From: Gemmatimonadales bacterium
GTDB taxonomy: Bacteria; Gemmatimonadota; Gemmatimonadetes; Gemmatimonadales; GWC2-71-9
NCBI GenBank assembly: GCA_038216165.1
Contig: JBBQQJ010000001.1
Coordinates: forward strand, 1 to 50,831
Reading direction: 5' to 3'
DNA: 50,831 nucleotides
The notes below the pieces were generated by a model. The model saw only the letters and a program-made list of their open reading frames with translations, did not search any database and was not told where the DNA came from. Made by a program: the position numbers and the translations under genes. Positions 29,257 to 46,024 of this stretch are shown here, one piece after another. Position 1 is the stretch's first letter. Every line of letters begins with the position of its first letter.

Positions 29257-30134
29257 GGCGAAGCCACGTCCCCCTCCGGCGGCTGACGTCGCCGGCTGAT
29301 AGCTCACCCCTCACCCTCCCAACTATTCCTCTCTCTCCGCTTCCCCTCCCGATCCCTCTCGAAGGCCCGCTGCCGTCGCTCTGGTCGCTTGGCGCCATCA
29401 CGGGGCCCGGCGATGCCGTGCGCGAGGTGCAGCTCGCGGCCCCGCCGGGGTGGGATCCGGTCACAGGGCCGGCGTTGCCGGTGCTCTACCTCCAGGATGG
29501 GCAGAACCTCTTTGATCCGGCCACGAGTTTTGCGGGGCATTGGGGCGTGCTCGAGACCCTCGCTGAGCTGGGGGGGGCACATCCCATGCTGGTGGTCGGG
29601 GTGCCGAATCTCGGCGTGGGTCGCCTCAAGGAATACTCACCATTCGACGACGCGATCCGCGGGATCGGCGAGGGGGTGGGCTACCTCAAGTGGCTCAGCA
29701 CGGTGGTGAAGCCGCTGGTGGATGCGCATTGCGCCACGCTGCCAGGGCGAGCGCACACCGCCGTGGGCGGTTCCTCCATGGGCGGATTGTTCGCGATCTA
29801 CGCGGTCTTGGGGGGGGCCGCGACCTTCGGCGCGGCGGTGGTGATGAGTCCGGCGCTCTGGTATGCGGACGGGGCGGTCTTCCGCTGGCTGCGCCGGCAG
29901 CCGGGGCCGGTGGGGGAGGTGTACCTGGATGTCGGCCTGCTCGAGGGGGAGGACACCGTCTTCGACGCGCGGCGGATGCATGACCTGTTGCTCGACCGAG
30001 GCTGGACACTCGGCACCTCGCTGCACTACCTGGAGGACGCCGAGGGGGATCACGACGAAGCGACGTGGGCCAGGCGGCTGCGGGCGCAGTGGGTGCGGAT
30101 TGTGGGAATGATCTCCCCGCCCCCGGGCAAGTGA
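29223..30134 (+). CDS. Esterase-family alpha/beta hydrolase (IroE/enterochelin-esterase-like); N-terminus uncertain
   Basis: LPVLYLQDGQNLFD and GGSSMGGLFAIY (GxSxG). The first ~50 codons of the track ORF are made of the heptad repeats and have lower GC3. An in-frame GTG at 29418 or a non-canonical start near 29370-29400 is possible. Confidence 0.7.
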   Translation: MVGCPFTVHRARRSHVPLRRLTSPADSSPLTLPTIPLSPLPLPIPLEGPLPSLWSLGAITGPGDAVREVQLAAPPGWDPVTGPALPVLYLQDGQNLFDPATSFAGHWGVLETLAELGGAHPMLVVGVPNLGVGRLKEYSPFDDAIRGIGEGVGYLKWLSTVVKPLVDAHCATLPGRAHTAVGGSSMGGLFAIYAVLGGAATFGAAVVMSPALWYADGAVFRWLRRQPGPVGEVYLDVGLLEGEDTVFDARRMHDLLLDRGWTLGTSLHYLEDAEGDHDEATWARRLRAQWVRIVGMISPPPGK

Positions 30135-30512: not shown

Positions 30513-33500
30513 TCACCCCTCCGTCACCACCGGGTGTTCCGCGGTCTTCGGTCCCCACGAGGCCGCCCCCCCGAACAGCCGACCCGCCAGACCCAGGAAC
30601 CACGCCCGCCATTCATCCAGAATCTCGTACACCGTCGGGATCACGATCAGCGTGAGCACCGCCGACGAGAGCACCCCGCCGATCACCGCGCGCCCGAGCG
30701 GCGCCCGGAAGTCGGCCCCCTCGCCAAGCCCAAGTGCCACCGGCACCATCCCCGCGATCAGCGCAAAGGTGGTCATCAGAATCGGCCGCAGCCGGATGCG
30801 CCCCGCCTCGATCAATGCCTCGCGCAGCGGCATCCCCTGCTTTTCGCGCGCCCACTTCGCGAAGTCGATCAACAGGATGGCGTTCTTCGCCACCAGCCCC
30901 ATGAGCAGGATCACGCCGATGAGCGACATGATGTTCAGCGTGTCCCCGGTGAGCAGCAACGCCAGCACCACACCAATCAGCGAAAGCGGCAGCGACACCA
31001 GGATCGCGAGCGGATCGAGGAACGACCCGAACTGCAGCACCAGGATGAGGTACATCATCAACACCGCAATCCCGAGCGCGGTGAAGACGTTCAAGAACAC
31101 CTCGGCCTGATCGCGGCCCTGGCCGCCCACCATCACCGAGTAGCCCGGCGGGAAGGTCATCTTCGCGAGCTCGGCCTGGATGCCAGCCTGGACCTCGTTG
31201 AGTGCCACCCCCTCAGGGTTGGCCTCAAGCGTCACCACGGTCTCGCGATCGAGGTGATCAATCTGCCCCGGCGCCTGACCCAACTCCACCTTCGCCACCT
31301 GGCCGAGCGGGATGAGAGTCGTGCCGCCAGATGCGGTGCGGACGGTGATCGGCAACTGCGCGAGGTCGGTCGTGCGCGTCCGTGCCTCGGGCGCCAAGCG
31401 CACGCGCACATCGCGCGTCTCACCCATGGGGTCCACCCAGTCGCCGGCAGCGATCCCGGCAAACGCCGGACGCATCGCCTGCGCCACCTGCCCCACGGTC
31501 AGACCCAGCGAGCTCGCCAGCCCACGATCGAGCGTGACCGTGAGCTCCTCGCGCGCACCGCGCACCGACAGCCCCACATCGGCCGCCCCCGGCACCGTGC
31601 GCGCCCGCGTCGCCGCCTCCTCCGCGAGGCGCGTGAGCACGCCGGCGTTCGGACCGCGCAGCTCCAACTGGATCTGCTTCATCGCCCCGCCGAAGCCGCC
31701 CGAGAAGACGGCCACGTTGACGCCGCCCACCTGCGTGAGCTCGCGACGCAGCTGCGCCCCGAGTTCGTCCTGGTTCATCGTGCGCTCAGCCTTTGGCACC
31801 AGCTTGATGAACAGCGAGGCTTGGTCCACACCCGGGGTGCGGGCCGGGAGTGCATTCCCCACCGTCACGTAGGTGTAGGCCACTTCCGAGTGCTGCCGCG
31901 CGATTGCCGCCACGGCCTCGGTCCGCTCCCTGGTGAAGTCGAGATTCGCGCTCGGCGGCGCCTCCACGATCACCTCGATCTCCGAACGGTCCGACACCGG
32001 TACGAACCCCACCCCACCGAACGCGCCCTGCAGCCAGATCGCCCCGGCAAAGGTGCCGATCGCCAGCGTCATGACAGCGATGCGGTGATCGAGCGCCCAG
32101 CCGATCAGCCGCGCATAGCGCTCCGTCTGCCGATCAAACCAGGCATTGAAGCGATCGAGGAGCTTGGTCAGCCATGACTTCTCATGCGCTTTCAGTTCAG
32201 GATCGGGCCAATAGGCAGAGAGCATCGGGTCGAGCGAGAACGAGACGAAGAGCGACACCAACACCGCGCAGGCGATCGTAAGGGCAAACGGCTTGAACCA
32301 TTGACCCGATATCCCCGACATGAACGCAATCGGGATGAACACCACCACGATCGAGAAGGTCGTCGCCGCCACTGCTAACCCGATCTCGGCCGTTCCCTCC
32401 CGCGCAGCGGTGAGATGGTCTTTGCCCATCGCCACATGGCGCACGATGTTTTCGCGCACCACGATCGCGTCGTCAATCAGGATGCCGATCGCCAGCGAGA
32501 GACCGAGGAGCGACATCGTGTTGAGCGTGAAGCCGAACGCCCACACGGCGATGAAGCTCGCCAGCACGGACACCGGCAACGCCAAGCCGGTGATGACGGT
32601 CGATCGCCACGAGTTGAGGAAGATGAACACCACCAGCACCGTGAGGATGGCGCCCTCGATCAATGCCGACTGCACGTTGGCCACCGCCCGCTCGACCCGG
32701 AAGCCGGCATCGCGGACGATCTCCACCTTGGCATCCCCCGGCAACTGCTCCTGCACCGCGGCGATCTCTGCCTTGAGGTTGTCCACCACCTGCGTCGTGG
32801 AGTAGCCCTTCGACTTCTTGATCTCGATCCCCACGGCCGGGCTGCCGTTGAACGCCGCGGCGGTGCGTGGCTCCTGGGTCCCCTCGCGCACGTCCGCCAC
32901 GTCGCCGAGCCGGACCTGACGGTCCCCGCGCTGGGCCACCACGATCTGGCGGAATGCCGCCGCGTCCTCGAGCCGTCCCTTGAGCCGAATCGAGCGCTCC
33001 TCGAGCGCCGTGTTGAGGCGCCCGACGGGCACCGCGAGGTTCTGCGACCGCAGCGCCGCCACCACCTCGTCGATCCCGACGCCGGCCGCCTGCATCGCGG
33101 CGGGGCGCACTTCCACCGTGAGTTCCGGATAGGTGCCACCGAGTACCCTCGCCTCGGCCACACCCGGTACGCCGCGCAAGGCACTCACCACCACCGGATC
33201 GGCCAGCTGCGTGAGCATCCGTGCATCCATCGTGGCCGACGTGACCGTCAGCGAGAGGATGGATTGCTCCATCGGATCGAACCGCGTGATGATCGGATCC
33301 TCGATCTCGGTCGGCAGATCGCCCCGGATGGTGCTCAGCGCATCGCGCACGTCCTGCGACGCCTGGGAGAGCGACGTCTTGAAGTCGAAGAAGACGGTGA
33401 TCTGCGCCAGCCCGTCCACGCTGTTCGATCGGGTCTTGGTCCGATCCACTCCCGCCAGCGCGAAGATCGCTTCCTCCACCGGCTCCACCACCTCCCGCTC

Positions 33501-33677
33501 GACGATGTCGGGCGAGGCGCCGGGGTAGGGGATCGCCACCGAGACGATCGGCTGCGCGATGTCCGGGAATTCATCGGTCTGCAGGTTGATCAGGGCGGCC
33601 ACACCAAATGCCACCAGCGCCAACATGGTGACGATGGTGACCAGCGGGCGCTTGATCGCGAAATCGGAAATCCACAT
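30513..33677 (-). CDS. RND efflux transporter permease (AcrB/HAE1-like)
   Basis: Preferred start is MWISDFAIKRPLVTIVTMLALVAFG at 33677, with GGAG upstream. About 1054 aa with the 12-TM RND architecture and conserved LAIGILIDDAIVVREN. Confidence 0.95.
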   Translation of the reverse strand: MWISDFAIKRPLVTIVTMLALVAFGVAALINLQTDEFPDIAQPIVSVAIPYPGASPDIVEREVVEPVEEAIFALAGVDRTKTRSNSVDGLAQITVFFDFKTSLSQASQDVRDALSTIRGDLPTEIEDPIITRFDPMEQSILSLTVTSATMDARMLTQLADPVVVSALRGVPGVAEARVLGGTYPELTVEVRPAAMQAAGVGIDEVVAALRSQNLAVPVGRLNTALEERSIRLKGRLEDAAAFRQIVVAQRGDRQVRLGDVADVREGTQEPRTAAAFNGSPAVGIEIKKSKGYSTTQVVDNLKAEIAAVQEQLPGDAKVEIVRDAGFRVERAVANVQSALIEGAILTVLVVFIFLNSWRSTVITGLALPVSVLASFIAVWAFGFTLNTMSLLGLSLAIGILIDDAIVVRENIVRHVAMGKDHLTAAREGTAEIGLAVAATTFSIVVVFIPIAFMSGISGQWFKPFALTIACAVLVSLFVSFSLDPMLSAYWPDPELKAHEKSWLTKLLDRFNAWFDRQTERYARLIGWALDHRIAVMTLAIGTFAGAIWLQGAFGGVGFVPVSDRSEIEVIVEAPPSANLDFTRERTEAVAAIARQHSEVAYTYVTVGNALPARTPGVDQASLFIKLVPKAERTMNQDELGAQLRRELTQVGGVNVAVFSGGFGGAMKQIQLELRGPNAGVLTRLAEEAATRARTVPGAADVGLSVRGAREELTVTLDRGLASSLGLTVGQVAQAMRPAFAGIAAGDWVDPMGETRDVRVRLAPEARTRTTDLAQLPITVRTASGGTTLIPLGQVAKVELGQAPGQIDHLDRETVVTLEANPEGVALNEVQAGIQAELAKMTFPPGYSVMVGGQGRDQAEVFLNVFTALGIAVLMMYLILVLQFGSFLDPLAILVSLPLSLIGVVLALLLTGDTLNIMSLIGVILLMGLVAKNAILLIDFAKWAREKQGMPLREALIEAGRIRLRPILMTTFALIAGMVPVALGLGEGADFRAPLGRAVIGGVLSSAVLTLIVIPTVYEILDEWRAWFLGLAGRLFGGAASWGPKTAEHPVVTEG

Positions 33678-33693
33678 GGTGTCGGGGCTCCGC

Positions 33694-34818
33694 TCAGGTG
33701 TCGGCGCGCGTGATGCGCACCGTGGCGCCGACCGGCGTCGAGATCGCGGCACCGATGAGCACGGTATCACCGACACTCACGCCGCTGGTGATCTCGACCC
33801 GTTCACGCAGGTCATCGCGGGCACCCACCGTCACGGCCACCGATTCCACCACGCCGTTCCGTACCCGGCGCACCGTGGGCGTGGTCGCCGTCACGTCGAG
33901 CGCCGTGAGTGGCACCGCCACCCCACGCACACTGGTCACCGCCACCCGCCCCTCGGCAAAGAGCCCAGCGGCGAGCTTGCGGTCGGCATTGGGGACCCGC
34001 ACGTAGAGGCGGATCTGGCCGGTCATCGCGTCCACGGTCGGGTTGAGCCGGGCAATTGCACCGCGAAACGCCTCGCCCGGAAACGCCGGCACCGCGAACT
34101 CCACCATCGTCCCGGTCTGCAGCACGCCGAGGTGCGAGGACGCGACCGTCGCTTCGAGGTCAAGCACGCTCGGGTCCACCACCGTCGCGATCGCGCCCGC
34201 GTTGCCACTCGTCTGCACCACGTCGCCGACGCTCACCGGCACCTCGCTCACCACCCCGGCAAACGGAGCGCGGACGAACGCCATCTCCAGTTGCTTCCGC
34301 GCGCTCGCCAGACGGCTCCGCGCCTCCGCGAGCGCGGCAGTGGCGGCGAGGGCCTGGTCCTCGGCCAGCTCCGTGTCGCGTGCGGCAATGGCACCGGCCG
34401 CGAGCAGCTCCCGGCTCCGCTCGAGGTTGCGCGCTGCCGAACGCGCCGCCGCCTCGGCGCTTTGCAGCGCGAGTCGCGCCGAGCGCGCCTGCTCGGCGAT
34501 CGCCATCGTGTCGATCACCGCCAAGAGCTGGCCGGCCGTGACCGGCTGGCCCTCCTGCACCAGCAGCGAGAGCACCGTGCCGCCCACCTGCGCCCGCAGT
34601 TGTGCGGTGCGCGCGGCCACCAGCGTACCGGAGAGCGTCGGGCCGGTCTCGACCAGCGCGCTGTCCACCACGCTGATGTTCATTGCGGCGATCTGGATCG
34701 CCGGTGGGGCCTCCGGCACCACCTCGGCATCCCCCCCCCCACAGGCGGCGAGGACAAGCAGGGCCACCGCAGGCGCGGCAGAACGCACGGAGGCGCGTGT
34801 TGGCATCGATCGGTTCAT
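33694..34818 (-). CDS. Efflux RND periplasmic adaptor (membrane fusion protein), lipoprotein
   Basis: Lipobox LLVLAACGG. Coiled-coil hairpin region (AEQARSARLALQSAEAAARSAARNLERSRELL). HlyD-like barrel. ATGA-type overlap with the tolC-like gene. Confidence 0.9.
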   Translation of the reverse strand: MNRSMPTRASVRSAAPAVALLVLAACGGGDAEVVPEAPPAIQIAAMNISVVDSALVETGPTLSGTLVAARTAQLRAQVGGTVLSLLVQEGQPVTAGQLLAVIDTMAIAEQARSARLALQSAEAAARSAARNLERSRELLAAGAIAARDTELAEDQALAATAALAEARSRLASARKQLEMAFVRAPFAGVVSEVPVSVGDVVQTSGNAGAIATVVDPSVLDLEATVASSHLGVLQTGTMVEFAVPAFPGEAFRGAIARLNPTVDAMTGQIRLYVRVPNADRKLAAGLFAEGRVAVTSVRGVAVPLTALDVTATTPTVRRVRNGVVESVAVTVGARDDLRERVEITSGVSVGDTVLIGAAISTPVGATVRITRADT

Positions 34819-36311
34819 CGGGTCGGTCCCATCAGGGCGGCACCCGCGCCCAGCGGAAGGTCACGCAGCAGCAGCACCCGGAGGCGGGCCACTTGCAGGT
34901 CCCGCGCAGCCTGCGCGCGGTTCGCCTCGGCCTGCTGCAACTGCAGCCGGGCATCGTTCAATTCGGTCTGGGTCGAGATCCCCTCGCGGAGTCGCACCTC
35001 GGCGATCGCATACGCCCGTGCCGCCTGGTCCGCCGTGCTCCGGCTCGCCTCCCACAGCGCCACCGCGGCCGCGAGCTGGTTCTGCACGTCCACCTGCTCC
35101 CGCTCGGCCTGCTCCTGCACCTGGCGCATCCGGAGCCGCGCCTCGTCGGCGGCGGCTTCCGCCGCCACCACCTCACCCCGGATCCGCCCACCCGTGAAGA
35201 GCGGGATGCTCACCCGTATTGATGCGGTCCAGTCGGTCAGGAAGCGCTCCCACCGGAACACCTCGTCGGGAAAGGTGATCTTGGCATAGTTGCTGGAGAG
35301 CCGCACGCTCGGCCGCCCGCTGCCGCGCGTACTGGAGAGCAGCCCCTCCGCCGCATCCACCCCCGCCTCGGCTTCGCGCACCGCGGCGCGCGACGCCACC
35401 ATGGTGTCATTGGCGAGTGCCGCCGTCAGGATGTGTGACGGTAGCGACACGTTCGCGCTGTCCCCGAGCGGCGTGGTCAGCTCGAGCGCCGCCGTGGGCG
35501 GCAGGTCCAGCAACTGGCGCAGCCGCAGGAAGGCCTGGTCACGCTGGGTCCGGCGCAGGATCACCACCGGCTTCTGGTTGTCACGCGCCACGCCGGCCCG
35601 CAACTCGTCGAACTCCGCTGCCGTCCCGACCTGCCGTGCCACCGCCACATCCGCGTACGTCCGCTCTGCCTGCACCAGCGTCAGCTCCGCGATGTCGAGC
35701 AGTCGCGCGGCGAGCTGGGCGTCGGTGTAGGCGAGCGCCACCTCGAGCACCGCCTGCGCGCGCGCGCCCTCCAGGGCGGCCGCCGCCGCCGTCGCCCCTG
35801 CGCGCGCTGCGCGGATCCGGCCACCGAGCGTGGGGTCGAACAGCGTCTGCGACGCCTCCAACCCGAAGCTCCACTGGTTGGCACGACCAAATGGCAGGTT
35901 GCTGAAATCAATGCCACCGTTGCCGTTGGCGGTGCAATCGAGGCCACGCTCCAGTGCCGTCACACGTTGATCGAACGGCAGCGACGGATCGGGAGTGAAG
36001 CGGATGCAGTTCACCGGAGAGGGGGGGGGAGGCTCACTGCTCCCGCTGTCGCCACCCTCCTGCAACGCGGCGAACTGGGTCTCGAGGGTGCGGGTGTAGA
36101 GCACCGACCCCGCGAGCTGCGGCAGCCAACCGCTCCGGGCCTGCTGCACCCGGCCATCGGCTCCGCGGACGCCCGCCCGCGCGATCCCGACCGCCTCGGA
36201 GGCGGAGTCGGCGCGCTGGAGTGCGTCACTCAGCGAGAGCCGGAGCGGCGCCTGGGCCCCGAGCCCCGCAGGCGGTGCGGCGAGCAGCACCGCCAGCCAT
36301 GCCGCCCTCAC
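34815..36311 (-). CDS. TolC-family outer-membrane efflux protein
   Basis: Signal peptide MRAAWLAVLLAAPPAGLGAQ. Two OEP repeats with a typical Q/A/L-rich coiled-coil pattern. 4-nt overlaps on both sides. Confidence 0.9.
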   Translation of the reverse strand: MRAAWLAVLLAAPPAGLGAQAPLRLSLSDALQRADSASEAVGIARAGVRGADGRVQQARSGWLPQLAGSVLYTRTLETQFAALQEGGDSGSSEPPPPSPVNCIRFTPDPSLPFDQRVTALERGLDCTANGNGGIDFSNLPFGRANQWSFGLEASQTLFDPTLGGRIRAARAGATAAAAALEGARAQAVLEVALAYTDAQLAARLLDIAELTLVQAERTYADVAVARQVGTAAEFDELRAGVARDNQKPVVILRRTQRDQAFLRLRQLLDLPPTAALELTTPLGDSANVSLPSHILTAALANDTMVASRAAVREAEAGVDAAEGLLSSTRGSGRPSVRLSSNYAKITFPDEVFRWERFLTDWTASIRVSIPLFTGGRIRGEVVAAEAAADEARLRMRQVQEQAEREQVDVQNQLAAAVALWEASRSTADQAARAYAIAEVRLREGISTQTELNDARLQLQQAEANRAQAARDLQVARLRVLLLRDLPLGAGAALMGPTR

Positions 36312-36886
36312 GACACCACCCGGGCGCCCAGCGCCCTGAGCGTCAGGTCCACGAAAGCGTCCACGGCCTGGTCCGGCGTGAGCGAAGTACAGCCCGGAAT
36401 GACGTCCCGGGTGATTCCATCCATGAAGATCGCATTCATCAGCATCACGGTCGCCGCTTCCAGCGACCCCTCGGTGTCAATGAGCCCGAGTTCCCGCGCC
36501 CGGGTCAGGTACCCCACCATGTCTGCCATCGCCTGCAACGCCCCCTCGCATGTGACCGGCGCGAGCTCGGGATGTTCCTCGAACTCCGCCAGCGAGGTCC
36601 GGATCACCTTGGCATGCCGGGTCGCGTGCCCATGGAGGGCGAGTCCCCACCCGAGGAGTTCCGTGCGCAGGTGCTCCGGGTGGGGGGGGAGGCGCGGAGG
36701 CAGGTCGGCCGCCCCCACATGCTGGATCGCCGCCTGGAGCAACGCCTCCTTGGAGCCGAAGTGCCGGAACAGCGTCACCTCATTCACGCCGGCCGCCGTG
36801 GCCACCTTCCGCGTGGTCGTACCCCGCCAGCCGGATTCGGCAAAGATCCGCACGGTCACGTCCAGCAACAGTTGCTTGGTATCCAT
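36308..36886 (-). CDS. TetR/AcrR family transcriptional regulator
   Basis: N-terminal HTH: LLDVTVRIFAESGWRGTTTRKVATAAGVNEVTLFRHFGSKEALL. First gene of the efflux operon. Confidence 0.9.
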   Translation of the reverse strand: MDTKQLLLDVTVRIFAESGWRGTTTRKVATAAGVNEVTLFRHFGSKEALLQAAIQHVGAADLPPRLPPHPEHLRTELLGWGLALHGHATRHAKVIRTSLAEFEEHPELAPVTCEGALQAMADMVGYLTRARELGLIDTEGSLEAATVMLMNAIFMDGITRDVIPGCTSLTPDQAVDAFVDLTLRALGARVVS

Positions 36887-36894: not shown

Positions 36895-36967
36895 ATTCTA
36901 CTGAATGATGTTCAGCGATGCAAGCAGGTACTTACACAACGTTACAATATGTTTCAGCTGTGAAACA
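36895..36967. promoter_or_regulatory. Divergent control region: candidate -10 for tetR plus two palindromic operator candidates
   Basis: On the minus strand, TAGAAT (36900-36895) ends 8 nt before the tetR ATG, with TTGCAT 17 nt upstream. IR1: CTGAA-tgatg-TTCAG at 36901-36915. IR2: TGTTTCA-gctg-TGAAACA at 36950-36967. A plus-strand TACAAT lies at 36943-36948. This is a locally AT-rich island. Confidence 0.45.
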
Positions 36968-37133
36968 ACCTCGCCCGAAGTCCGGGGGAACAGTGGGCCC
37001 ATCCACACGATCGTCTGCTCGGGATGGCCCCGCTTTCCCCCGCACCCGTTGTCCCCTTCATCCGTTTTCCCCCTGCACGTTTTACGTTTCTCCACCGACA
37101 GTACCCACCCCCGCGCCAAGGACCTCCCCACCG

Positions 37134-37859
37134 ATGTGGCATCGCTCCACGCATACCTGGAACTCGGCCGCCCTCGGGGGTCGGCCGATGGAGCTCGTCA
37201 TCCATGGCCACGCCGGGGCCCGCACGCTCGTGTTCCCGACCTCGATGGGGTGGAACCAGGAGTGGGAAGATCGGGGGATGTGCGAGGCGGTGGGTGACCT
37301 GCTTGCCGCCGGTGAGCTGCAACTGATCTGCGTGCCGAGCATGGACGCGGAGAGCTGGTACGACACGACAGCGCATCCGCGCCAGATGGCGGAGGTCCAT
37401 GCGGCCTACGACGCCTATCTATATAGAGAGGTCCTGCCGTTCACCCTGGCGGCCAACCGGAACCCGTTCGTGATCACCGCGGGTGCCTCGTTCGGCGGAT
37501 ACCATGCCCTCAACTTCGCGGCGCGCTATCCGCACATCGTCGGACGTGCGGTGGTGATGAGTGGCCTCGTCGACATCACCCGGCTCACCCATGGCTGGTC
37601 GGACGACCTGGTGTACTTTCACAACCCGGCGGCGTTCCTCCGCCAGGAGAATGATCCCGGGCGGGTCGCCGCGCTCCAGCGGCTCGACCTGATCCTCGCC
37701 GTTGGGCGGGACGACACCTTGCGCGCGCAGAACGAGTCGCTGTCCGCCGCCCTCTGGCAGCGCGGCATCGGCAGCGCCCTGCGTCTCTGGGACGGCTGGG
37801 CGCATGACTGGCCCTGGTGGCGCCAGATGTTCCGGATGTATGTCGGCGGACATGATTAG
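37134..37859 (+). CDS. Esterase-family alpha/beta hydrolase (first gene of amidoligase operon)
   Basis: CCAAGGACC lies upstream of ATG 37134. MWHRSTHTWNSAALGGRPMELVIHGHAGARTLVFPTS..., with nucleophile elbow GASFGGYHAL. Confidence 0.8.
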   Translation: MWHRSTHTWNSAALGGRPMELVIHGHAGARTLVFPTSMGWNQEWEDRGMCEAVGDLLAAGELQLICVPSMDAESWYDTTAHPRQMAEVHAAYDAYLYREVLPFTLAANRNPFVITAGASFGGYHALNFAARYPHIVGRAVVMSGLVDITRLTHGWSDDLVYFHNPAAFLRQENDPGRVAALQRLDLILAVGRDDTLRAQNESLSAALWQRGIGSALRLWDGWAHDWPWWRQMFRMYVGGHD

Positions 37860-37865
37860 GGGGTC

Positions 37866-37984
37866 GATGTTGGATGTTGGATGTTGGACACTCGACATCG
37901 GCAACTCGATCCTGGTGAGCGACAGCGATGGTCGACTCCAATATCCACCATCCCATTACCGACATCCACACCAAGGACCCCTAC
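37866..37984 (+). repeat. Heptanucleotide-periodic intergenic spacer, starting with (GATGTTG)3
   Basis: The 119 nt (17 x 7) run from 6 nt after the esterase stop up to the ATP-grasp ATG. Units in register: GATGTTG x3, GACACTC, GACATCG, GCAACTC, GATCCTG, GTGAGCG ... ATCCACC, ATCCCAT, TACCGAC, ATCCACA, CCAAGGA, CCCCTAC. Confidence 0.75.
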
Positions 37985-38938
37985 ATGACACCACAACCCC
38001 AACGATCCATCGGCCTCCTCGTCGGTCGCGAATGGTCGTGGCCACCGGCCTTCATCGAGGAGGTCAACCGTCGCGGCGCCGGGGTCCATGCCGAGTTCGT
38101 CTCTCTGGGCGCGCCTCGCCTCGATGACCCCAAGCGCTACGACGTGGTGGTCGACCGGATCTCGCACGAGGTGCCGTTCTACCGGACCTGGCTCAAGCAC
38201 ACCGTGGTGAAGGGGACGCGGGTGATGAACTCCCCGCTGATGTGGACCGCCGACGACAAGTTCTTCGGCGCCACCCTCGCGGAGGCCAATGGGATCGCGT
38301 CACCGAAGACGGTCCTGCTCCCCAACAAGGAGTACATCCCCGGCATCAAGCACGAGGAGTCACTCCGCAACCTGGCCTATCCGCTCGATTGGCAAGCGGT
38401 GGTGGATCACATCGGGCTCCCCTGCGTGCTCAAGGACGCGCACGGCGGCGGCTGGCGCGACGTGTATATCTGCCACACACTGGAGGAGCTGCTCCACCAC
38501 TACAACCAGTCGGGGCTGCTCACGATGATTGTGCAGGAGTTCATCGTCTGGGACGAGTTCGTGCGCTGCATCTGCGTGGGGCACAAACACGTGGCGGTGA
38601 TCAAGTACGACCCGACCACCCGCACCTACCACGAGACGGAGGATTTTCTCCCCCTCGGGCTGCACGACACGATCGTCGAGCAGGCGCGCACCCTCTGCCG
38701 CGCGCTCGGCTACGGGATGAACTCGCTCGAGTTCGCGATTCGTGACGGCATTCCCTACGCCATCGATTTCATGAACCCCGCCCCCGACTTCGACATCAAC
38801 TCCCTCGGTCCGAAGTGGTTCGAGTGGGTGGTCCGCACCATGGCCGATGTGACGATCGCCATGGCGCTCGAGGACCGGGCCCTGCCGAAGCCGACGGCGC
38901 ACGCGCTGATCCGGGGCCGGGGAAAGCAGCGCGGGTGA
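37985..38938 (+). CDS. ATP-grasp domain protein (RimK/glutathione-synthetase-like ligase)
   Basis: AAGGA lies 7 nt upstream of ATG 37985. IGLPCVLKDAHGGGWRDVYICHTLEEL, MIVQEFIVWDEFVRCICVG and SLEFAIRDGIPYAIDFMN fit the ATP-grasp nucleotide-binding and Mg-site layout. Confidence 0.8.
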   Translation: MTPQPQRSIGLLVGREWSWPPAFIEEVNRRGAGVHAEFVSLGAPRLDDPKRYDVVVDRISHEVPFYRTWLKHTVVKGTRVMNSPLMWTADDKFFGATLAEANGIASPKTVLLPNKEYIPGIKHEESLRNLAYPLDWQAVVDHIGLPCVLKDAHGGGWRDVYICHTLEELLHHYNQSGLLTMIVQEFIVWDEFVRCICVGHKHVAVIKYDPTTRTYHETEDFLPLGLHDTIVEQARTLCRALGYGMNSLEFAIRDGIPYAIDFMNPAPDFDINSLGPKWFEWVVRTMADVTIAMALEDRALPKPTAHALIRGRGKQRG

Positions 38939-40287
38939 GCCACGATCCGGCGGCCGCGTGGCACGCGCTCCTCGACGACGACCTCGCCGCCGAGACCGAC
39001 GCATGGCTGGCGGCGCGACAGGTCGAGCGCGGCCTCACGTTCGGGACGCGGCCGCTCTGCACCGTGCTGCGCCCGCGCTTCCTTGACACCGCCGCATACG
39101 ACGCGCTCCGGCTCGCCACCCGCGAGCTGATGGGCGCGCTGAACACCGCCGGCGAGGCGGCCCTGGTCGATCCCGCCTTCCGCGCCGCGTTTCACCTTGC
39201 CGAGTGGGAGGAGACGCTGCTCGCGCGGATGCCGCGACTCTCCGCGCTCACGCCATTCGCACGGCTCGACACCTTCATCGACCCCGAGACCGGCATTGCG
39301 CGCCTCACCGAGTGCAACGGCGAGACCCCGGCCGGCACCGGCTATTCCGACGCCCTCACCGATCTCTTTCTGGCGGCACCGCCGATGCGGCAGTTCGCCC
39401 GCGATTGGGTGGTGCGCCCGCTCCCCGGCCTCCCCCACCTGCTCGGCGTGCTGCTCGACGCGTGGCAGCACTTCCGCGGCACCCGCGAGGCACCCTCGCT
39501 CGCCATCGTGGACTGGGCGGATGTGCCCACACAGGGCGAGTTCCGACTCTGCCAGGAGTACTTCGGGCGGATGGGGGTGCCGTGTCGCATCACCACACCC
39601 GAAGCGCTCCGCTATGCGCAGGGGGTGCTGCGCGACGACGATGGCACGCCGATCACGCTCGTGTACAAGCGGGTGCTGCTGCATGAACTCGTCGCGCGCG
39701 CGGGGATCGACCACCCGATGCTGCGCGCGGTCGCCGATGGCGCCGCCTGCATGGTGAACCCCATCCACGGCAAGCCGCTCCACAAGAAGGCGGCCCTCGC
39801 CGTGCTCTCCGACGAGCGGCACGCCGACCGCTTCACCGCCACCCAGCACGCCGCCATCGCGCGGCATGTGCCCTGGACCCGCGTGGTCGAGTCGCGCACC
39901 ACCCTGATCGACGGCGCAGCGGTGGACCTGCTCCCGTGGGCCGCGGAACACCGCGACGAGCTGGTGCTCAAACCGAATGATGACTATGGCGGCGCCGGTA
40001 TCGTCCTCGGCTGGGAAGTGGATCAGACCGCCTGGGACAGCGCACTTGAGCGCGCCGTCGCCCAGCCCTACATCGTGCAGCGGCGGATCGCCCTCCCGAC
40101 CGAGACGTTCCCCGCCATCGTCGACGGGCGCATGGTCCTCGATCCGCGCATTGTCGACGTCGCACCGTTCGCCTGGCAGGGCCGGTATGCAGAGTCCTGC
40201 CTCTCCCGCATCTCCACCTCGACGTTGGTCAACGTCACCGCGGGCGGCGGCTCCACCGTCCCCACTTTTGTCGTGGAGCACCGATGA
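38935..40287 (+). CDS. Second ATP-grasp-type amidoligase (circularly-permuted type-2 / glutathionylspermidine-synthase-like)
   Basis: GTGA overlap with the upstream stop. Motifs: [86 protein letters not shown]. The assignment comes from memory of family patterns and needs an HMM search. Confidence 0.7.
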
Positions 40288-41390
40288 AGGCCCCTTCGCT
40301 CACCATCGGGATCGAGGAGGAGTATCAGATCATCGATCCCGAGACCCGGGAGTTGCGCAGCTACATCACCGAGATCCTCCAGGAGGATTCCGTGATGCTC
40401 GGCGAGATCAAGCCCGAGCTGCACCAGTCGATGGTCGAGATCGGCACCTCCGTCTGCCACACCCCGGCCGAGGTGCGGACCGAGCTGATTCGCCTGCGTC
40501 GGCTGGTGATGAATCTCGCCGCGCGGAAGGGACTCGTGATCGCCGCCGCCGGCACTCATCCGTTTTCGTCGTGGATCGATCAGGAGATCACCCCGCTGGA
40601 GCGCTACATCGTGGTCAAGGAAGACCTGCAGGAGCTGGCGCAGTCGCTCCTGATCTTCGGGACCCACGTCCACATCGGCATCGAGGACCCGGAGTTCCGG
40701 ATCGATGCGATGAACGTCTGTCGCTACTTCCTGCCACACGTGCTCGCACTGAGCACGTCGTCGCCGTTCTGGATGGGCCGCAACACCGGGCTCAAGAGCT
40801 ACCGCAGCGTGGTGTTCCGATCGTTCCCGCGCACCGGGATTCCCCGCACGCTCAACTCGCATGCCGACTACGAAGAATTCGTGAACGTGATGGTCGCCAC
40901 CCGGTCGATCCCGGACGCCAGCAAACTCTGGTGGGACGTGCGGCCGCACCACAAATTTCCGACCCTCGAGTTCCGGGTCTGCGATGTCTGCACCCGGGTG
41001 GACGAGGCGGTCTGCATCGGGGCCATCTTCCAGGCGCTCATCGCCAAGCTCTGGAAGTTGCGCCGCGACAACATCACCTTTCGGCAGTACGCCCCGAGCC
41101 TGATCGAGGAGAACAAGTGGCGCGCCACGCGCTACGGCCTTGGCGGGCACCTCATCGACTTCGGGCGCGGGGAGCAGAAGCCCGCGACGAGCCTGATCGA
41201 AGAGTTGCTCGCCTGGTTCCTCGATGACGTGCTCGATGAGCTCGGGTCGCGGAAGGAAGTGGAATACGCCCTCACCATCCTGCGCGAGGGCACCAGCGCA
41301 GATCGGCAGCTCGCCACCTGGCGTGCCACCGGCTCCCTGCACGCCGTCGTGGACCAGCTCGTGCGCGAAACCGCCGAGGGAGTGATCTGA
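40284..41390 (+). CDS. Carboxylate-amine ligase, YbdK/GCS2 family
   Basis: ATGA overlap with the upstream gene. [24 protein letters not shown]..., HVHIGI and the [15 protein letters not shown] motifs are typical of glutamate-cysteine ligase family 2. Confidence 0.9.
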
Positions 41391-41392
41391 CG

Positions 41393-42166
41393 ATGTCCGT
41401 TCGCCGTCCGCTGGTCGGGGTGACCACCCAGACCCTTCACGCCATCGAAGGGATCCCCGACGGCCTCCCCGATTCGTGGGTCATGAACCAGCGGTATGTA
41501 CATGCCGTGATGGCTGCCGGCGCCCTTCCGGTGCTGGTCCCGTTGCTGGCGGAGGATCCCGCCACCCTGCACGCGATCTACGAGCGGCTCGACGGCGTGG
41601 TCGTGCCGGGCGGCATCGACGTCGACCCGGCCTACTACCGGGCCCCGCGGCATGAGGCGCTCGGGCGCCTCGATCCGGCGCGCGACACCACGGAGATGAT
41701 TCTCGCGCGCTGGGCGCTCCGCGACAGGAAGCCGTTCCTCGGCCTCTGTCGCGGCATGCAGATCCTCAACGTCGTCACCGGCGGCTCCCTCTGGCAGGAC
41801 CTCGAGGCCGAGCGCGAGGGCTCCCTCAAGCACGACTACTTCCCGACCGCCGGCTGGGAGCGCGACCATCTCGCCCATCCCATCGAGATCGTCCGCACCT
41901 CCCGGCTCGGTGACGCGCTGCACGCGGCCAGCGCACCGGTCAACTCGATGCACCATCAGGGCGTCCGCGACGTCGGCTTCGGCCTCGTCCCCACGGCGTG
42001 GTCCCCCGACGGATTGATCGAGGCCGTGGAGGCGGAACAGGGCTTCGCCGTGGGCGTGCAGTGGCACCCGGAAATGTTCACCCCCGGCGCAGCGTCGGTC
42101 GGCGAGCTCTTCGCCGCCTTCGTCGATGCCGCTGGGGGGGGCACCAAACCGGCGCGCCTCGCATGA
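41393..42166 (+). CDS. Gamma-glutamyl-gamma-aminobutyrate-hydrolase-like protein (peptidase C26, class-I glutamine amidotransferase fold)
   Basis: Starts 2 nt after the upstream stop. GLCRGMQILNVV (Cys nucleophile), VNSMHHQGV and GVQWHPE motifs. Confidence 0.9.
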   Translation: MSVRRPLVGVTTQTLHAIEGIPDGLPDSWVMNQRYVHAVMAAGALPVLVPLLAEDPATLHAIYERLDGVVVPGGIDVDPAYYRAPRHEALGRLDPARDTTEMILARWALRDRKPFLGLCRGMQILNVVTGGSLWQDLEAEREGSLKHDYFPTAGWERDHLAHPIEIVRTSRLGDALHAASAPVNSMHHQGVRDVGFGLVPTAWSPDGLIEAVEAEQGFAVGVQWHPEMFTPGAASVGELFAAFVDAAGGGTKPARLA

Positions 42167-42549
42167 CCGCCCTCGCGGTGGCCGGTGGGGGCGCGCTCGG
42201 GGCGCTGTTGCGCTGGGCCGTCGGCACCTGGGTCGTCCGGGGCCATGCCGACGCCTTCCCCTGGGCCACCCTCGCCGTGAACATCATCGGGTCCGCCCTG
42301 CTCGGCGGCATTACCGTCTGGGCCACCGAAACCGGCGGCTTCTCACAGGCCACTCGGCTCTTCCTGACGGTGGGCCTCTGCGGCGGCTTCACCACCTTCA
42401 GTACCTTCGCCTACGAGACCGCCGACTTCGCCGCGCGTGGCCTCCAGGGGCGTGCCGCCCTCTACGCGCTGCTCAGCGTGACGCTCTGTGTTGGGGCCGT
42501 CATCGCCGGCGGGGCAGTGGGGCAGGCGGTGGCCGGCAGGGGGGACTAG
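42163..42549 (+). CDS. crcB: Fluoride ion channel CrcB/FluC
   Basis: ATGA overlap with the upstream gene. MTALAVAGGGALGALLRW..., NIIGSALLG and GLCGGFTTFSTF are conserved CrcB motifs. 128 aa. Confidence 0.9.
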   Translation: MTALAVAGGGALGALLRWAVGTWVVRGHADAFPWATLAVNIIGSALLGGITVWATETGGFSQATRLFLTVGLCGGFTTFSTFAYETADFAARGLQGRAALYALLSVTLCVGAVIAGGAVGQAVAGRGD

Positions 42550-42627: not shown

Positions 42628-44979
42628 TCACCCCTGCATCCGAAACAGATACGACAGCTTCAGGAAGAACCCGTCCTCCGTGCGCCGGAGCTGCCGCCGG
42701 CCATCGCGATCGGGTTCCTCGTGCGACGCTCCGTACCCCAGGTACACCAGCGTGCCCGGTGTCGGGAGGTAGGTGAAGAGGAAGTCGGTGCGCAGCGCGC
42801 CCTGGCGCCCGCCGAGGTCGCGCGTAAAGGCGCCGGTGGCGGGGTGCCGCACCACCAGCGGCAGCTCGGTGCGGGAGTTGTCGCGCAACGAGTCCTGGAT
42901 GTCGAGCGTGTACTGCGAGATGATCCGGACCTGCATCGCCCGGGAGAGCTGGTATTCCAGCCGCGCCCGCGGCACAATCCGCAGCGAGACGCGCGAGTCG
43001 TCCAACGGGCGGTTGACCTGCTGGTGATTGTACGAGAGGATCACCCGCGCCTGTTCGCTCGGCCGCAGCGTGGCGCTCGCCGTGATCCAGAGCAGGTCCC
43101 CGCTTGCCCACTCGAAAAAGTTTTCGTCGCGTCCCCAGAGCAGGAAGGCGTTGAACTGCGCGACGCGAAACGCGGGCGACCCCACCGTCACGAGGTAGTC
43201 GCGATTGGGAAGCCGCGGCGTCCCCACGAACGGCAGCACCGCGCCGGAGGGGGCCAGCACGCCATGGTTGCGGTACAGCGACGGATCGTACCCGAACGAC
43301 TCCTCGAGCCACGACGCCCCGACGCTCCAGCCACCGCGCCAGCGGGAGTTCACGTTGAAGTGCAGTTTGCGATCCTGGATCTGGCCACCATGCACGAAGT
43401 CGTCGTACTGCCAGGTGCCGTCGAGCACCACTTCGCCGGTGAGTGCTTCCAGGGCCGCCCCTTCGCGCAACCGCGTGAGTGAGTGCGCCACCGCCGCCTG
43501 CGCGATGCCCGGGCGGGTGATGAAGCCGGTGCGTGTGCGGAAATCGGCGTCAATCCCCGACAACGTGTACCGGGCACGAAAGCTCCGCCCGTTCCGCGTG
43601 TAGCCGGCCGACCACAACGGGGCGGTGGTGGCGGTCCCGTTCACCTCGTCCCGTGCAACGGCGCCGTGGAAGGTGAAGGAATGGATGCCACCGAGCACGA
43701 CGCGGCCATCGGCCGCCACCACCCGGTTCGCATCGGGCCCGTCGGATTGCTCGGTCCACGTCATCCCCAGCCGGGAGCCGGGCCCGAGGTCGCGGGTGAG
43801 GCGCATCACCCCGAAGCGGGGATGATCGCCGTGCCGCGAGGCGGCGCGGTCATCGAGCGCGGCCAAGAGGCCCACCTGCGTCCCGGCCACGCGCCCCGCC
43901 ATCTTGGTGGCCGCCACCGGCTGCACGATGCGGCGCGTGTAGATCAGGCGCGACGGCGCATCGAACTGCTCGATCCCATCCAGAAAGAACGGCCGCCGCT
44001 CCGGAAAGAAGAGCGCTTGGCGCGGGTCGAACGCGAACTGCCCCGCGTCGCTCTCCACCTGCGAGAAATCCGGATTGGCCGTGCCATTGAGGGTCAGGTT
44101 GGGGGTGATCCCCCACCGCACCGTGCCGCCCACCTCGGGAGCGCCGCCATCGTAGCCCCACCGCCCGACTGGCCCACTCCCCCCCCCACGCACCGCCGCG
44201 GTGAGGGTCGGGATGATGTCCACCACCACGCCGCGCTGCAATCCCTCGAGGCCAGCGAGCTGCCCGGATTGGGCGAGGAACGACGCCGCCGCCCGGGTGG
44301 CCGGTGTCCAGGTCTGCTCCTGACCGCTGCGCTGCACCACGCGCAGCACGTTGATTCCCCACGCCTGGCGCGCCCCCGACTGGAAGCGGATGCTCTTGAA
44401 CGGAATGCGGAGCTCCACCGCGTAGCCATCGGCGAGCAGGCGGCCCTTCGATGCCCAGACGAAGTCCTGCGACAGGTCCGGCGCCTCGCGCGTGGACACC
44501 GCGCAGTTGAAGCCGCCGCAGGCGCGTCCGCCACTCTCGTTCAGGGCGCCGTCGGCCTGCACCCCGAGCGGGTTCACGGCCAGGAAGGTGGCCTGGCGGC
44601 CGTCGTTGAAGGTCGAGAGGAAGAGCTGCACCTGGTCGTCGCTGCCGATCCGGTCGCGCTCGGCCAGCGTCGCGCGCACCGCCCCGGCCACGTCCCACGC
44701 CCGGATCCCCACGTGCAACGCCGTGGGCGAGTACCACACCCGCACCTCGGTGGAGTCGGTCGCGGCCACCTGGTCCACCGGGGCGTACTGGGAGAACCCC
44801 GTGAGGATCGCCGCCTGCTGCCACACCGGCTCGTCGAGCACCCCGTCCACCGTGATGCTCGCCTCGATCCGGGGTGGCCGCACCATGAGGTCACCCAGGC
44901 GGCCGTGATAGACCAACGAGTCGTTCGGACCGGCAACAAGGGCAAGCGCAAACAGGGGCAGCAGGGCCATGCGGTCCAT
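42628..44979 (-). CDS. CBM9-like / DUF5916 domain outer-membrane-associated protein
   Basis: Preferred start is MDRMALLPLFALALVAG at 44979 (or 44970). ITVDGVLDEPVWQQAAILTGFSQYAP is CBM9-like. The long beta-rich C-terminal region ends ...FFLKLSYLFRMQG. Confidence 0.75.
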   Translation of the reverse strand: MDRMALLPLFALALVAGPNDSLVYHGRLGDLMVRPPRIEASITVDGVLDEPVWQQAAILTGFSQYAPVDQVAATDSTEVRVWYSPTALHVGIRAWDVAGAVRATLAERDRIGSDDQVQLFLSTFNDGRQATFLAVNPLGVQADGALNESGGRACGGFNCAVSTREAPDLSQDFVWASKGRLLADGYAVELRIPFKSIRFQSGARQAWGINVLRVVQRSGQEQTWTPATRAAASFLAQSGQLAGLEGLQRGVVVDIIPTLTAAVRGGGSGPVGRWGYDGGAPEVGGTVRWGITPNLTLNGTANPDFSQVESDAGQFAFDPRQALFFPERRPFFLDGIEQFDAPSRLIYTRRIVQPVAATKMAGRVAGTQVGLLAALDDRAASRHGDHPRFGVMRLTRDLGPGSRLGMTWTEQSDGPDANRVVAADGRVVLGGIHSFTFHGAVARDEVNGTATTAPLWSAGYTRNGRSFRARYTLSGIDADFRTRTGFITRPGIAQAAVAHSLTRLREGAALEALTGEVVLDGTWQYDDFVHGGQIQDRKLHFNVNSRWRGGWSVGASWLEESFGYDPSLYRNHGVLAPSGAVLPFVGTPRLPNRDYLVTVGSPAFRVAQFNAFLLWGRDENFFEWASGDLLWITASATLRPSEQARVILSYNHQQVNRPLDDSRVSLRIVPRARLEYQLSRAMQVRIISQYTLDIQDSLRDNSRTELPLVVRHPATGAFTRDLGGRQGALRTDFLFTYLPTPGTLVYLGYGASHEEPDRDGRRQLRRTEDGFFLKLSYLFRMQG

Positions 44980-45106
44980 CCGGAGCGGGAGTGACAGGGG
45001 ATGGGAAGCGGTACGAGCAGGCAGGACCGGGAGTTTCCCCGCCACACTAGATTCCGGTGAGACACTCCCCCGTGCACCGTTCACCCTCCCCACCCCAGAG
45101 CCTCCC

Positions 45107-46024
45107 ATGCGACTCCTCGCCCTGGTGCTCCTCGCCACCGCCCCCCTCGCCGCCCAATGGCCGGCCGTCCAGCGCGACGCCGCCCTCGAACGGCAACTCG
45201 CCACGCTGGCTGCCGAGGTCGATGGCGAGGTCGGGATCTACGTGCGCCATCTCCCCACCGGACGCGGGGCGCTGCTGCGCGCCGACGAGCTGTTTCCCAC
45301 CGCCTCGATGGTCAAGGTGCCGATCCTTCTCACGACCTTCGACCAGGTCGCGCGGGGCACCTTCGCCTTCGATACCACCCTCGTCTGGGCCGACTCGCTC
45401 CGCTATGGGGGCGAGGACGATCTCTTCGACAAGCTGCGCGACAGCGCCCGCGTGCCGCTGAGCCAGGTGACCCAGGCGATGATCTCCAGCAGCGACAACG
45501 CCGCGTCACTCTGGCTCCAGGCGCTCGTCGGGGGGGGGGCGGCCATCAACACCTGGCTCGCCGCCAACGGCTTCGACTCCACCCGCGTCAACTCGCGCAC
45601 CCCCGGCCGGCGGGAGATCTGGCAAAAGTACGGCTGGGGCCAGACCACCCCGCGCGAGATCGCCGAAATGGTGGTGGGCCTCCGCGAGGGGCGGCTGGTG
45701 AGTCGCGCGGCCAGCGAGGCGATGTACCGACACCTCACGCGCATCCACTGGAACGGCGAGGCACTCTCCCAGTTGCCGCCCTGGGTGCAGGCCGCGTCCA
45801 AGCAGGGCGCCGTCAATCGCTCGCGCTCCGAGGTGGTGCTCGTCAACGCTCCGGGAGGCGACTATGTCTTCGCGGTCATCACCCGCAACCAGGGAGACGA
45901 GTCCTGGACGCCAGCCAACCAGGGCTACGTCCTCCTGCGCAAGGTCTCGGCGCTGCTGTGGGGGACCTTCGCCCCGGGGCATCCGTATACCCCACCACCG
46001 GACGCGCCGCGATACCTGCCGTAG
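45107..46024 (+). CDS. Class-A beta-lactamase-like serine hydrolase
   Basis: Signal peptide MRLLALVLLATAPLAAQ. SxxK (TASMVKV), SDN (SSSDNAA) and a KTG-equivalent (SKQGAV). Confidence 0.75.
   Translation: MRLLALVLLATAPLAAQWPAVQRDAALERQLATLAAEVDGEVGIYVRHLPTGRGALLRADELFPTASMVKVPILLTTFDQVARGTFAFDTTLVWADSLRYGGEDDLFDKLRDSARVPLSQVTQAMISSSDNAASLWLQALVGGGAAINTWLAANGFDSTRVNSRTPGRREIWQKYGWGQTTPREIAEMVVGLREGRLVSRAASEAMYRHLTRIHWNGEALSQLPPWVQAASKQGAVNRSRSEVVLVNAPGGDYVFAVITRNQGDESWTPANQGYVLLRKVSALLWGTFAPGHPYTPPPDAPRYLP

Follow-up and report, generated by a model that had tools for sequence, protein, structure and literature searches.

A conserved amidoligase cassette of esterase, ATP-grasp and YbdK-type genes in a Gemmatimonadales contig: a computationally predicted, experimentally orphan system

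ATP-grasp and GCS-type enzymes form amides through acyl-phosphates, and operons of several stand-alone ligases of this sort are a recognised, largely unexplored route to peptides made without a ribosome or a nonribosomal peptide synthetase (NRPS). The closest described system is the gene neighbourhood of the Pfam family CP_ATPgrasp_2 (PF14403), a family with a Roseiflexus prototype; besides the permuted ligase it comprises a GCS2-like ligase, a peptidase of the α/β-hydrolase fold and further amidohydrolases. Comparative genomics (Iyer et al. 2009) reportedly predicted that neighbourhoods of this type make small peptides. Where ATP-grasp and COOH-NH2 ligases are encoded together, they typically carry out one ligation after another on the way to a metabolite (PMC4431377, which cites that work). 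Here we analyse a cassette of this kind, consisting of an esterase gene, three amide-ligase genes and a hydrolase gene, in a 50,831-bp metagenome-assembled NCBI contig from a soil-type Gemmatimonadales bacterium; the window analysed is the entire contig.

Several characterised systems share parts with the cassette. Glutathionylspermidine synthetase (GspS) uses glutathione as its carboxylate substrate, and PuuD-type C26 enzymes cleave γ-glutamyl amides. The fungal E-64 pathway assembles its product with a glutathione synthetase (GS)-fold ATP-grasp enzyme, Cp1B, a pyridoxal phosphate (PLP)-dependent decarboxylase, Cp1C, and an ANL amide-bond synthetase, Cp1D (PMC12568646). YgiC and YjfC are described as peptide-spermidine ligases (Pederick et al. 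2023, as cited in PMC12568646).

The cassette of the Gemmatimonadales contig contains est, encoding an α/β-hydrolase; grasp1, a RimK-like ATP-grasp ligase; cpgrasp, a circularly permuted ATP-grasp ligase; ybdK, a YbdK/GCS2-type carboxylate-amine ligase; and a C26 gene for a putative γ-glutamyl hydrolase (Table 1). Judged from their sequences, three different carboxylate-amine ligases and a Ser-Asp-His α/β-hydrolase are predicted to be intact and are kept in a fixed same-strand order in at least five phyla. We consider it probable that they form an NRPS-independent amidoligase cassette that builds a small peptide or peptide-amine conjugate in the cytoplasm and afterwards trims or recycles it. 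The cassette is a known, computationally predicted and experimentally orphan kind of system, not a new kind.

An earlier, sequence-only reading of this DNA had proposed six same-strand open reading frames (ORFs), the sixth being crcB. All six are present, five as exact deposited gene calls, and the families assigned to them are borne out by Pfam and NCBIfam matches, profiles and Foldseek. The motifs it quoted, GASFGG, GLCRGMQ and HHQ, were found, with key residues at least 97% conserved in orthologues. Re-reading the junctions in the sequence gave the same overlaps and the same 2-nt gap (Table 1), so the proposed chain of coupled genes stands from grasp1 to crcB; it fails for the esterase and the first ligase, which are separated by 125 nt (or 68 nt if the deposited grasp1 start at 37928 is used). 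In 45-80 orthologues per enzyme the motifs for catalysis and nucleotide binding show at least 97% conservation, and all five enzymes look active. The exact cassette proteins are on record from this contig only, their close homologues are all from Gemmatimonadales or Gemmatimonadota, and GC content across the locus is uniform at 65-72%.

Conservation of the arrangement was assessed by scanning one genome per GTDB species for relatives of cpgrasp. At least 586 encoded relatives were found, and the best 80 loci, all from other species, were analysed; genes were counted when on the same strand and in the same order, the denominators being the loci with enough flanking sequence. By this measure grasp1 is present in 72/75 loci, est in 58/66, ybdK in 59/68 and the C26 gene in 40/61. 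The order esterase, RimK-like ligase, permuted ligase, YbdK recurs on the same strand from locus to locus, an arrangement far beyond chance. The 80 loci span Gemmatimonadota, Chloroflexota, Acidobacteriota, Planctomycetota (Gemmatales), Bacteroidota and one bin labelled Proteobacteria; those in Chloroflexota belong to Anaerolineae, Ardenticatenaceae, Caldilineaceae, Chloroflexia/Ktedonobacteria-like lineages and Thermomicrobiales. Co-conservation of the five enzymes, which the sequence-only reading had put forward as a check, is found across phyla for est, grasp1, cpgrasp and ybdK, while C26 is lineage-variable. The linkage of a permuted ATP-grasp gene to a GCS2 ligase and an α/β-hydrolase agrees with the CP_ATPgrasp_2 neighbourhood, and there too the function is predicted, not demonstrated. 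The differences are that the core here includes a PF00756 esterase and a RimK-like ligase that is invariant, and that the accessory hydrolase is a C26 enzyme.

In some Anaerolineae and Ardenticatenaceae loci est, grasp1 and cpgrasp stand alone between unrelated housekeeping genes. Because the trio occurs alone in these loci, we regard it as the core of the cassette. Gene order indicates that YbdK is a near-constant fourth member and that C26 is an exchangeable accessory rather than part of the core. In Ktedonobacteria/Chloroflexia-type loci (L075, L081) ybdK is followed by a gene for an S9 prolyl-oligopeptidase-type peptidase, with a 4-nt overlap in L081; this α/β-hydrolase peptidase matches the CP_ATPgrasp_2 description. 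Some Anaerolineales loci have an additional ATP-grasp_4 ligase gene after ybdK, and in Gemmatimonadaceae two more tandem ATP-grasp ligases and EST2, a second PF00756 esterase, precede est. The accessory partners, namely C26, the S9 oligopeptidase of L081 and the extra ATP-grasp_4 ligases, act on small substrates, which supports the assembly of a small product. Other genes interrupt the array in single loci: a PLP-dependent group-II decarboxylase (L023, 5408-6892) and an S-adenosylmethionine (SAM) methyltransferase (L037, 956-1723) between est and grasp1, and a RES-domain toxin (L007, 9458-10345) between cpgrasp and ybdK. The decarboxylase and the methyltransferase look like tailoring genes and in that capacity would also support small-molecule assembly.

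Median gaps between cassette genes are 25-65 nt across the loci. A ribosomal precursor or carrier peptide co-encoded inside the cassette was considered and rejected, these gaps being too short, and the initial statement that the locus has no convincing ribosomal precursor holds.

The permuted ligase has the most informative relatives. The cpgrasp product of the window matches PF14403 at 20.1 bits, under the gathering cut-off of 32, which sets it apart from the defined CP_ATPgrasp_2 family. PF14403 is matched by 17 of 20 cpgrasp orthologues at E<=0.01 (best 4.6e-8), and many homologues bear a precomputed PF14403 match and the IMG label 'uncharacterized circularly permuted ATP-grasp superfamily protein'. 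On these scores cpgrasp appears to be a borderline or sister family to PF14403. A profile of 20 orthologues (A1), searched against the PDB, matched the permuted ATP-grasp protein 3n6x at 1.5e-6 and YgiC (7uk8) at 0.009, the YgiC alignment spanning positions 50-133 and ending just past the E-x-N motif. The AlphaFold (AF2) model, with a predicted local distance difference test score (pLDDT) of 91.7, aligns over its full length in Foldseek with plant, human and yeast glutathione and homoglutathione (hGSH) synthetases (E ~1e-17, template modelling (TM) score ~0.7). Further matches are 3n6x (1e-15), Cp1B (9cjn, 5.6e-15), GspS, YjfC/YgiC and trypanothione synthetase; the GS/GspS/YgiC group covers E values from 1e-17 to 1e-12, at only 13-18% identity. 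Profile and model together show that the description of cpgrasp as circularly permuted or glutathionylspermidine-synthase-like was right. Two motifs, TExNxE(T/+)PA and VLKPNDxYGGxG, do not vary among 80 orthologues. The protein reaches no GS or GSP_synth Pfam model; GSP_synth turns up in 2 of 20 orthologues (E 0.004). More than 4,200 close homologues are known, forming 431 clusters at 50% identity with E<=1e-30. Among remote relatives, P0494 (990 aa) is fused to an N-terminal AMP-binding (ANL) enzyme and P0442 (692 aa) to a GCS2 domain, the latter being a true fusion or a merged gene call. The Roseiflexus prototype, sought by name among the top 120 homologues of a Chloroflexota orthologue, was not among them; all were Ktedonobacteraceae-like.

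Comparison with glutathione and glutathionylspermidine synthesis follows from these matches. There, too, GCS-type and ATP-grasp enzymes perform successive carboxylate-amine ligations, a γ-glutamyl hydrolase serves turnover, and the cpgrasp model superposes on glutathione and homoglutathione synthetases, GspS and YgiC/YjfC. The cassette differs in the low identity and missing family matches of its ligases, in lacking a CHAP amidase domain and in adding a RimK-like ligase and an esterase. The E-64 pathway is likewise an NRPS-free assembly of a pseudopeptide-amine with a GS-fold ATP-grasp, and the decarboxylase inserted in L023 and the AMP-binding fusion in P0494 recall its other enzymes. It belongs, however, to another kingdom, shows no similarity detectable by hidden Markov models (HMMs) and includes an epoxysuccinate-forming oxygenase that has no counterpart here.

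The second ATP-grasp ligase, grasp1, gave only sub-threshold matches in single-sequence searches, among them the rimK_fam model TIGR00768 at E 1.7e-13. Both curated cut-offs are missed (TIGR00768: 50.6 bits, cut-off 143.4; LysX model: 22 bits, cut-off 275.6); grasp1 shares the RimK fold, yet by these scores is not a RimK/LysX family member. A profile of 24 grasp1 orthologues (A2) matched Ddl (3r23) at 1.1e-5, biotin-type carboxylases, LysX and RimK in the PDB. The AlphaFold (AF2) model (pLDDT 79.7) finds RimK first in Foldseek (7qyr and 5zk6, E 2.6e-13 to ~3e-13, TM 0.62-0.70), followed by Ddl and LysX/ArgX. The rimK_fam match, the profile and the model place grasp1 in the ATP-grasp superfamily, a membership singled out beforehand as decisive for the proposal. 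LKDAxGGGW, QE+I and AIDFMNPAPD (D261/N264) are at least 97% conserved among 72 orthologues, ligand roles being assigned by motif position. Fold and ATP-grasp motifs are thus shared with RimK, which poly-glutamylates S6, and with the LysX/ArgX-LysW systems; grasp1 differs from both in falling under the family cut-offs and in having no target or carrier gene nearby. The start at 37985 is favoured over the deposited one, as ~120 homologues are of ~317 aa and M1 is invariant in alignment A2. The deposited call is 19 codons longer than nearly all homologues, and an AAGGA motif lies upstream of 37985.

The product of ybdK is the ligase most firmly placed in a family. It matches PF04107 (GCS2) at 187.8 bits against 21 and NF010039, 'carboxylate-amine ligase', at 524.5 against 371, and aligns with E. 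coli YbdK (1r8g) at E 8.4e-43. Its acidic clusters are at least 97% conserved in orthologues, and its identity to orthologues of other phyla is 65-93%.

The C26 protein matches Peptidase_C26 (PF07722) at 200.6 bits against 20.5 and is closest to Lin1909 and PuuD; its structural matches are PuuD (6vtv, 2e-30), 3fij and 7d4r, a 'probable glutamine amidotransferase'. G-x-C119-R-G-x-Q and W-H-P-E are invariant in 45 orthologues and the Cys-His-Glu triad is intact. PuuA/PuuD of E. coli and Pau/SpuA of Pseudomonas likewise combine an ATP-dependent ligase with a C26 hydrolase of the PuuD type. Here, unlike in the Puu and Pau routes, the ligase is of the GCS2/YbdK type and not the GlnA type, the oxidative steps are not encoded, and C26 is dispensable or replaceable.

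The nearest solved structures to est are the putative esterase 5vol, feruloyl esterases and FphF-type esterases. Its G-x-S119-x-G motif, D194 and H224 (in HDW) are at least 97% conserved among 62 orthologues, and neither est nor EST2 has an obvious signal peptide when the sequences are read by eye.

Table 1. Genes and sequence features of the window, with the evidence for each assignment.
Feature	Position	Strand	Evidence or description	Junction with preceding gene
Copper amine oxidase gene	6528-8567	-		
tRNA-Ala(CGC)	9601-9696	+	ARAGORN; 96 nt, anticodon at 38	
TonB-dependent receptor	26440-29118	+	CarboxypepD_reg domain	
EST2, second PF00756 esterase	29223-30134	+	PF00756, E 2.2e-19	
TetR-OMF-MFP-RND (AcrB-type) efflux operon	30513-36886	-		4-nt overlaps between its genes
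TetR gene, first gene of efflux operon	36308-36886	-		
Palindrome TGTTTCA-gctg-TGAAACA	36950-36967		Perfect, 7 nt	
est, α/β-hydrolase 'esterase', 241 aa	37134-37859	+	PF00756, 43.3 bits against a cut-off of 22	
Imperfect inverted repeat	37865-37900			
GATGTTG tandem	37866-37888		Perfect, 3.3 copies	
grasp1, RimK/LysX/Ddl-type ATP-grasp ligase, 317 aa	37985-38938	+	Sub-threshold TIGR00768, profile A2, Foldseek	125-nt spacer after est
cpgrasp, circularly permuted ATP-grasp, 450 aa	38935-40287	+	Sub-threshold PF14403, profile A1, Foldseek	GTGA overlap with grasp1, 38935-38938
ybdK, YbdK/GCS2-type carboxylate-amine ligase, 368 aa	40284-41390	+	PF04107, NF010039	ATGA overlap with cpgrasp, 40284-40287
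C26 gene, Peptidase C26 / class-I-GATase-fold γ-glutamyl hydrolase, 257 aa	41393-42166	+	PF07722	TGA-cg-ATG, 41388-41395 (2-nt gap)
crcB, CrcB fluoride channel	42163-42549	+	TIGR00494, 87.7 bits against a cut-off of 80.45	ATGA overlap with C26 gene, 42163-42166
DUF5916 protein gene, 858 aa	42628-45204	-		
Beta-lactamase2-family protein gene	44969-46024	+	PF13354	

In the scheme that we propose, each ligase would phosphorylate a carboxylate to the acyl-phosphate and make one amide bond. The YbdK-type enzyme would make a γ-glutamyl-type bond, the RimK-like enzyme would extend the α-carboxylate, and the GS/GspS-like enzyme would attach an amino acid or a decarboxylated amine to the terminal carboxylate as a cap, in the manner of glutathione synthetase, GspS and YgiC/YjfC. 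C26 would then remove or recycle the γ-glutamyl unit, and the PF00756 hydrolase or hydrolases would mature or degrade the product. The predicted co-transcription of crcB would be an accident of location. Bond order and substrates are guesses in this scheme, and we infer both the product and the γ-glutamyl chemistry. With est, grasp1 and cpgrasp on their own in some loci, two amide bonds are probably enough for the core product; the addition of a γ-glutamyl group by YbdK and its removal by C26 may be an add-on or a removable handle. The known chemistry of cpgrasp relatives supports the scheme, as these enzymes ligate amino acids or polyamines to a small carboxylate, which is γ-Glu-Cys for hGSH synthetase and epoxysuccinate for Cp1B (PMC12568646). 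Further support comes from the fusions of remote relatives to an AMP-binding enzyme (P0494) or to GCS2 (P0442), and from the precedent of linked ATP-grasp and COOH-NH2 ligases acting in succession (PMC4431377).

A number of points weigh against assembly of such a product. YbdK misses the glutamate-cysteine ligase equivalogs (NF010043 at 356.4 bits against 409, NF010042 at 240 against 427, TIGR02048 at 71 against 249), and neither cpgrasp nor any of 20 orthologues matched the eukaryotic GS Pfam model at E<=0.01; the top Foldseek rank of GS may merely reflect how few permuted-fold structures have been solved. The inserted decarboxylase and methyltransferase occur in one locus each, and the scheme leaves the role of the esterase unexplained. 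With its RimK/LysX fold, grasp1 could just as well modify the C-terminus of a protein encoded elsewhere, and the presence of two hydrolases beside the ligases would fit salvage or catabolism no less well. As regards membership of curated families, C26 scores 115.8 bits against 266 with the PuuD equivalog NF008471. With the RimK, LysX, PuuD and GshA cut-offs all missed, the cassette proteins belong to none of these equivalog families.

Protein tagging is one alternative: the RimK-like and permuted ligases would extend the C-terminus of a protein or carrier, encoded at another locus, with amino acids, and the hydrolases would remove the tag. The best structure matches of grasp1 are indeed RimK, including the RimK-RpsF complex 5zk6, and LysX/ArgX, which act with LysW, and hydrolases beside ligases would make such a modification reversible. 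Yet neither the cassette, with its gaps of 25-65 nt, nor the sequence next to it contains a small acidic carrier gene, an S6 gene or a small ORF that is conserved, the flanks are unrelated between phyla, and the TIGR00768 and LysX scores are far under their cut-offs. With cpgrasp relatives of known chemistry working on small molecules, and C26 and S9 enzymes on small amides and oligopeptides, we regard tagging as unlikely. A catabolic or detoxifying γ-glutamylation is about as improbable. In this case YbdK would glutamylate an amine and C26 would release the γ-glutamyl group after processing, as in the Puu and Pau polyamine pathways. A ligase paired with a C26 enzyme is a hallmark of such routes, C26 is closest to PuuD, with a partial score on its equivalog, and it also matches 7d4r-type proteins, which presumably are SpuA-like γ-glutamyl-polyamine hydrolases. 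The cassette, however, includes no oxidase, dehydrogenase or aminotransferase, its invariant core occurs without ybdK or C26 in Anaerolineae, and C26 is elsewhere swapped for an S9 peptidase or a further ligase; three to five ligases would be hard to justify in catabolism, and the PuuD equivalog cut-off is missed.

Another alternative is a polymer of amino acids, for storage or as the side chain of a cofactor; poly-glutamate and cyanophycin-like material are examples, and the hydrolases would be the depolymerases. It would draw on the ability of RimK-type enzymes to polymerise glutamate (5zct), on the cleavage of γ-glutamyl chains by C26 enzymes and on the glycogen synthase and GH57 genes that abut the cassette in several Gemmatimonadaceae, together with a CBM48-subtilase upstream of it in L027. 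Three ligase types point to several different bonds and not to the repetition of a single one, none of the known architectures of polymer synthetases is found here, and the glycogen adjacency is confined to a few related lineages, all of which makes a polymer quite doubtful. Least probable, in our estimation very unlikely, is a metallophore or another metabolite exported and re-imported, made by the ligases, exported by the resistance-nodulation-division (RND) pump and imported by the TonB-dependent receptor, with Fes/IroE-like PF00756 esterases freeing the cargo. A receptor and EST2 do lie upstream of the cassette, here as in six further Gemmatimonadales loci, a TetR-RND operon sits between EST2 and est, and PF00756 includes enterochelin esterases, with a weak NF007758 match. 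Receptor and pump adjacency is nevertheless limited to one order, no TonB-dependent receptor adjoins the cassette in the Chloroflexota loci L050, L060, L067 and L081, and both esterases appear, from their sequences, to lack signal peptides.

Returning to the assembly of a small peptide or peptide-amine conjugate, a bolder form of it is that the product is a small molecule not described before, conserved among Gemmatimonadota, Chloroflexota and their neighbours and close to housekeeping in its role, for example an amine-capped γ-glutamyl-peptide such as a glutathionylspermidine-like low-molecular-weight thiol or polyamine conjugate. Its builder would be a bacterial glutathione-synthetase-fold enzyme, and the high cross-phylum identity of YbdK would reflect a central physiological role. 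We put this forward as a speculative possibility, with the odds clearly against it.

No characterised pathway matching the gene set, which would have counted against the sequence-only reading, was found in the literature searched, and no product assignment for the cassette was found there either. A paper on the methylofuran ATP-grasp enzymes MyfA/MyfB was set aside as unrelated. The cassette is biologically coherent and a good orphan-pathway target, if no great surprise to an amidoligase specialist. It is widespread and strongly conserved in poorly studied soil and wastewater phyla, and with four to five genes it is compact enough for heterologous expression. The identity of its product would assign a function to the YbdK-type ligase, a family of still unclear physiological role, and to two ATP-grasp families that lie under every Pfam/NCBIfam cut-off. 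A new class of metabolite, for instance of thiols, polyamine conjugates or compatible solutes, could come to light in these phyla.

The conserved cassette reaches beyond the segment at 37134-42549, out to EST2. EST2 is 50% identical (E 1e-69) to the esterase encoded immediately 5' of est in L015, and tblastn finds a counterpart at 38-51% identity in 35/80 loci, nearly always adjoining the cassette; sequence and position make it a probable displaced member of the ancestral cassette. In the window EST2 is preceded by a TonB-dependent receptor gene, and the same receptor (54-57% identity) lies upstream of EST2 in six other Gemmatimonadales loci, in which EST2 adjoins the cassette. EST2 and est are separated here by a minus-strand efflux operon encoding a TetR regulator, an outer membrane factor (OMF), a membrane fusion protein (MFP) and an RND pump, found next to the cassette in the closest relatives only (L001-L011). 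This layout is explained most simply if the efflux operon entered an ancestral EST2-est-grasp1-cpgrasp-ybdK-C26 array by insertion, or came to lie in it through rearrangement, and for this reason we assign TetR to the pump and not to the ligase operon. A role for TetR as regulator of the cassette is not supported: it is the first gene of the minus-strand pump operon and adjoins the cassette only in the closest relatives.

The 247-bp divergent gap between TetR and est contains a perfect palindrome, a candidate TetR operator, which is also the sole confident hairpin in the predicted leader fold. A structured leader 5' of est (36940-37134) was not significant (z = -0.97). The spacer between est and grasp1 carries a perfect GATGTTG tandem within an imperfect inverted repeat. 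Terminator-like sites across the locus number 3 against 2.1 expected from shuffling, i.e. no excess, and internal sigma-70 promoters likewise show no excess over the shuffled expectation. The lack of a terminator excess and the overlaps of stop and start codons lend indirect support to a putative single transcript of the six genes. At gathering thresholds the window contains no riboswitch or known RNA, the fluoride riboswitch included. CrcB was rejected as a cassette member, as it is present in only 4/58 loci with enough flank, and is regarded as a lineage-specific passenger.

Elsewhere in the window, the tRNA-Ala call is of unusual length for bacteria; it may contain an intron or insertion or may be false. 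A copper amine oxidase is encoded 29 kb from the operon; amines are candidate substrates, and its linkage to the cassette is without evidence. Genes for glycogen synthase and a GH57 branching enzyme are direct neighbours of the cassette, upstream in the Gemmatimonadota loci L021, L026, L031, L033 and L043 and downstream in L038, L046 and L054, and the subtilase upstream of the Anaerolineales cassette (L027, 479-2125) carries a CBM48 glycogen-binding module. This proximity to glycogen genes may be accidental or may point to storage metabolism. Downstream of the operon lie a convergent DUF5916 gene and a PF13354 gene; both hold the same position in L001, L006 and L010, and DUF5916 also occurs in L009.

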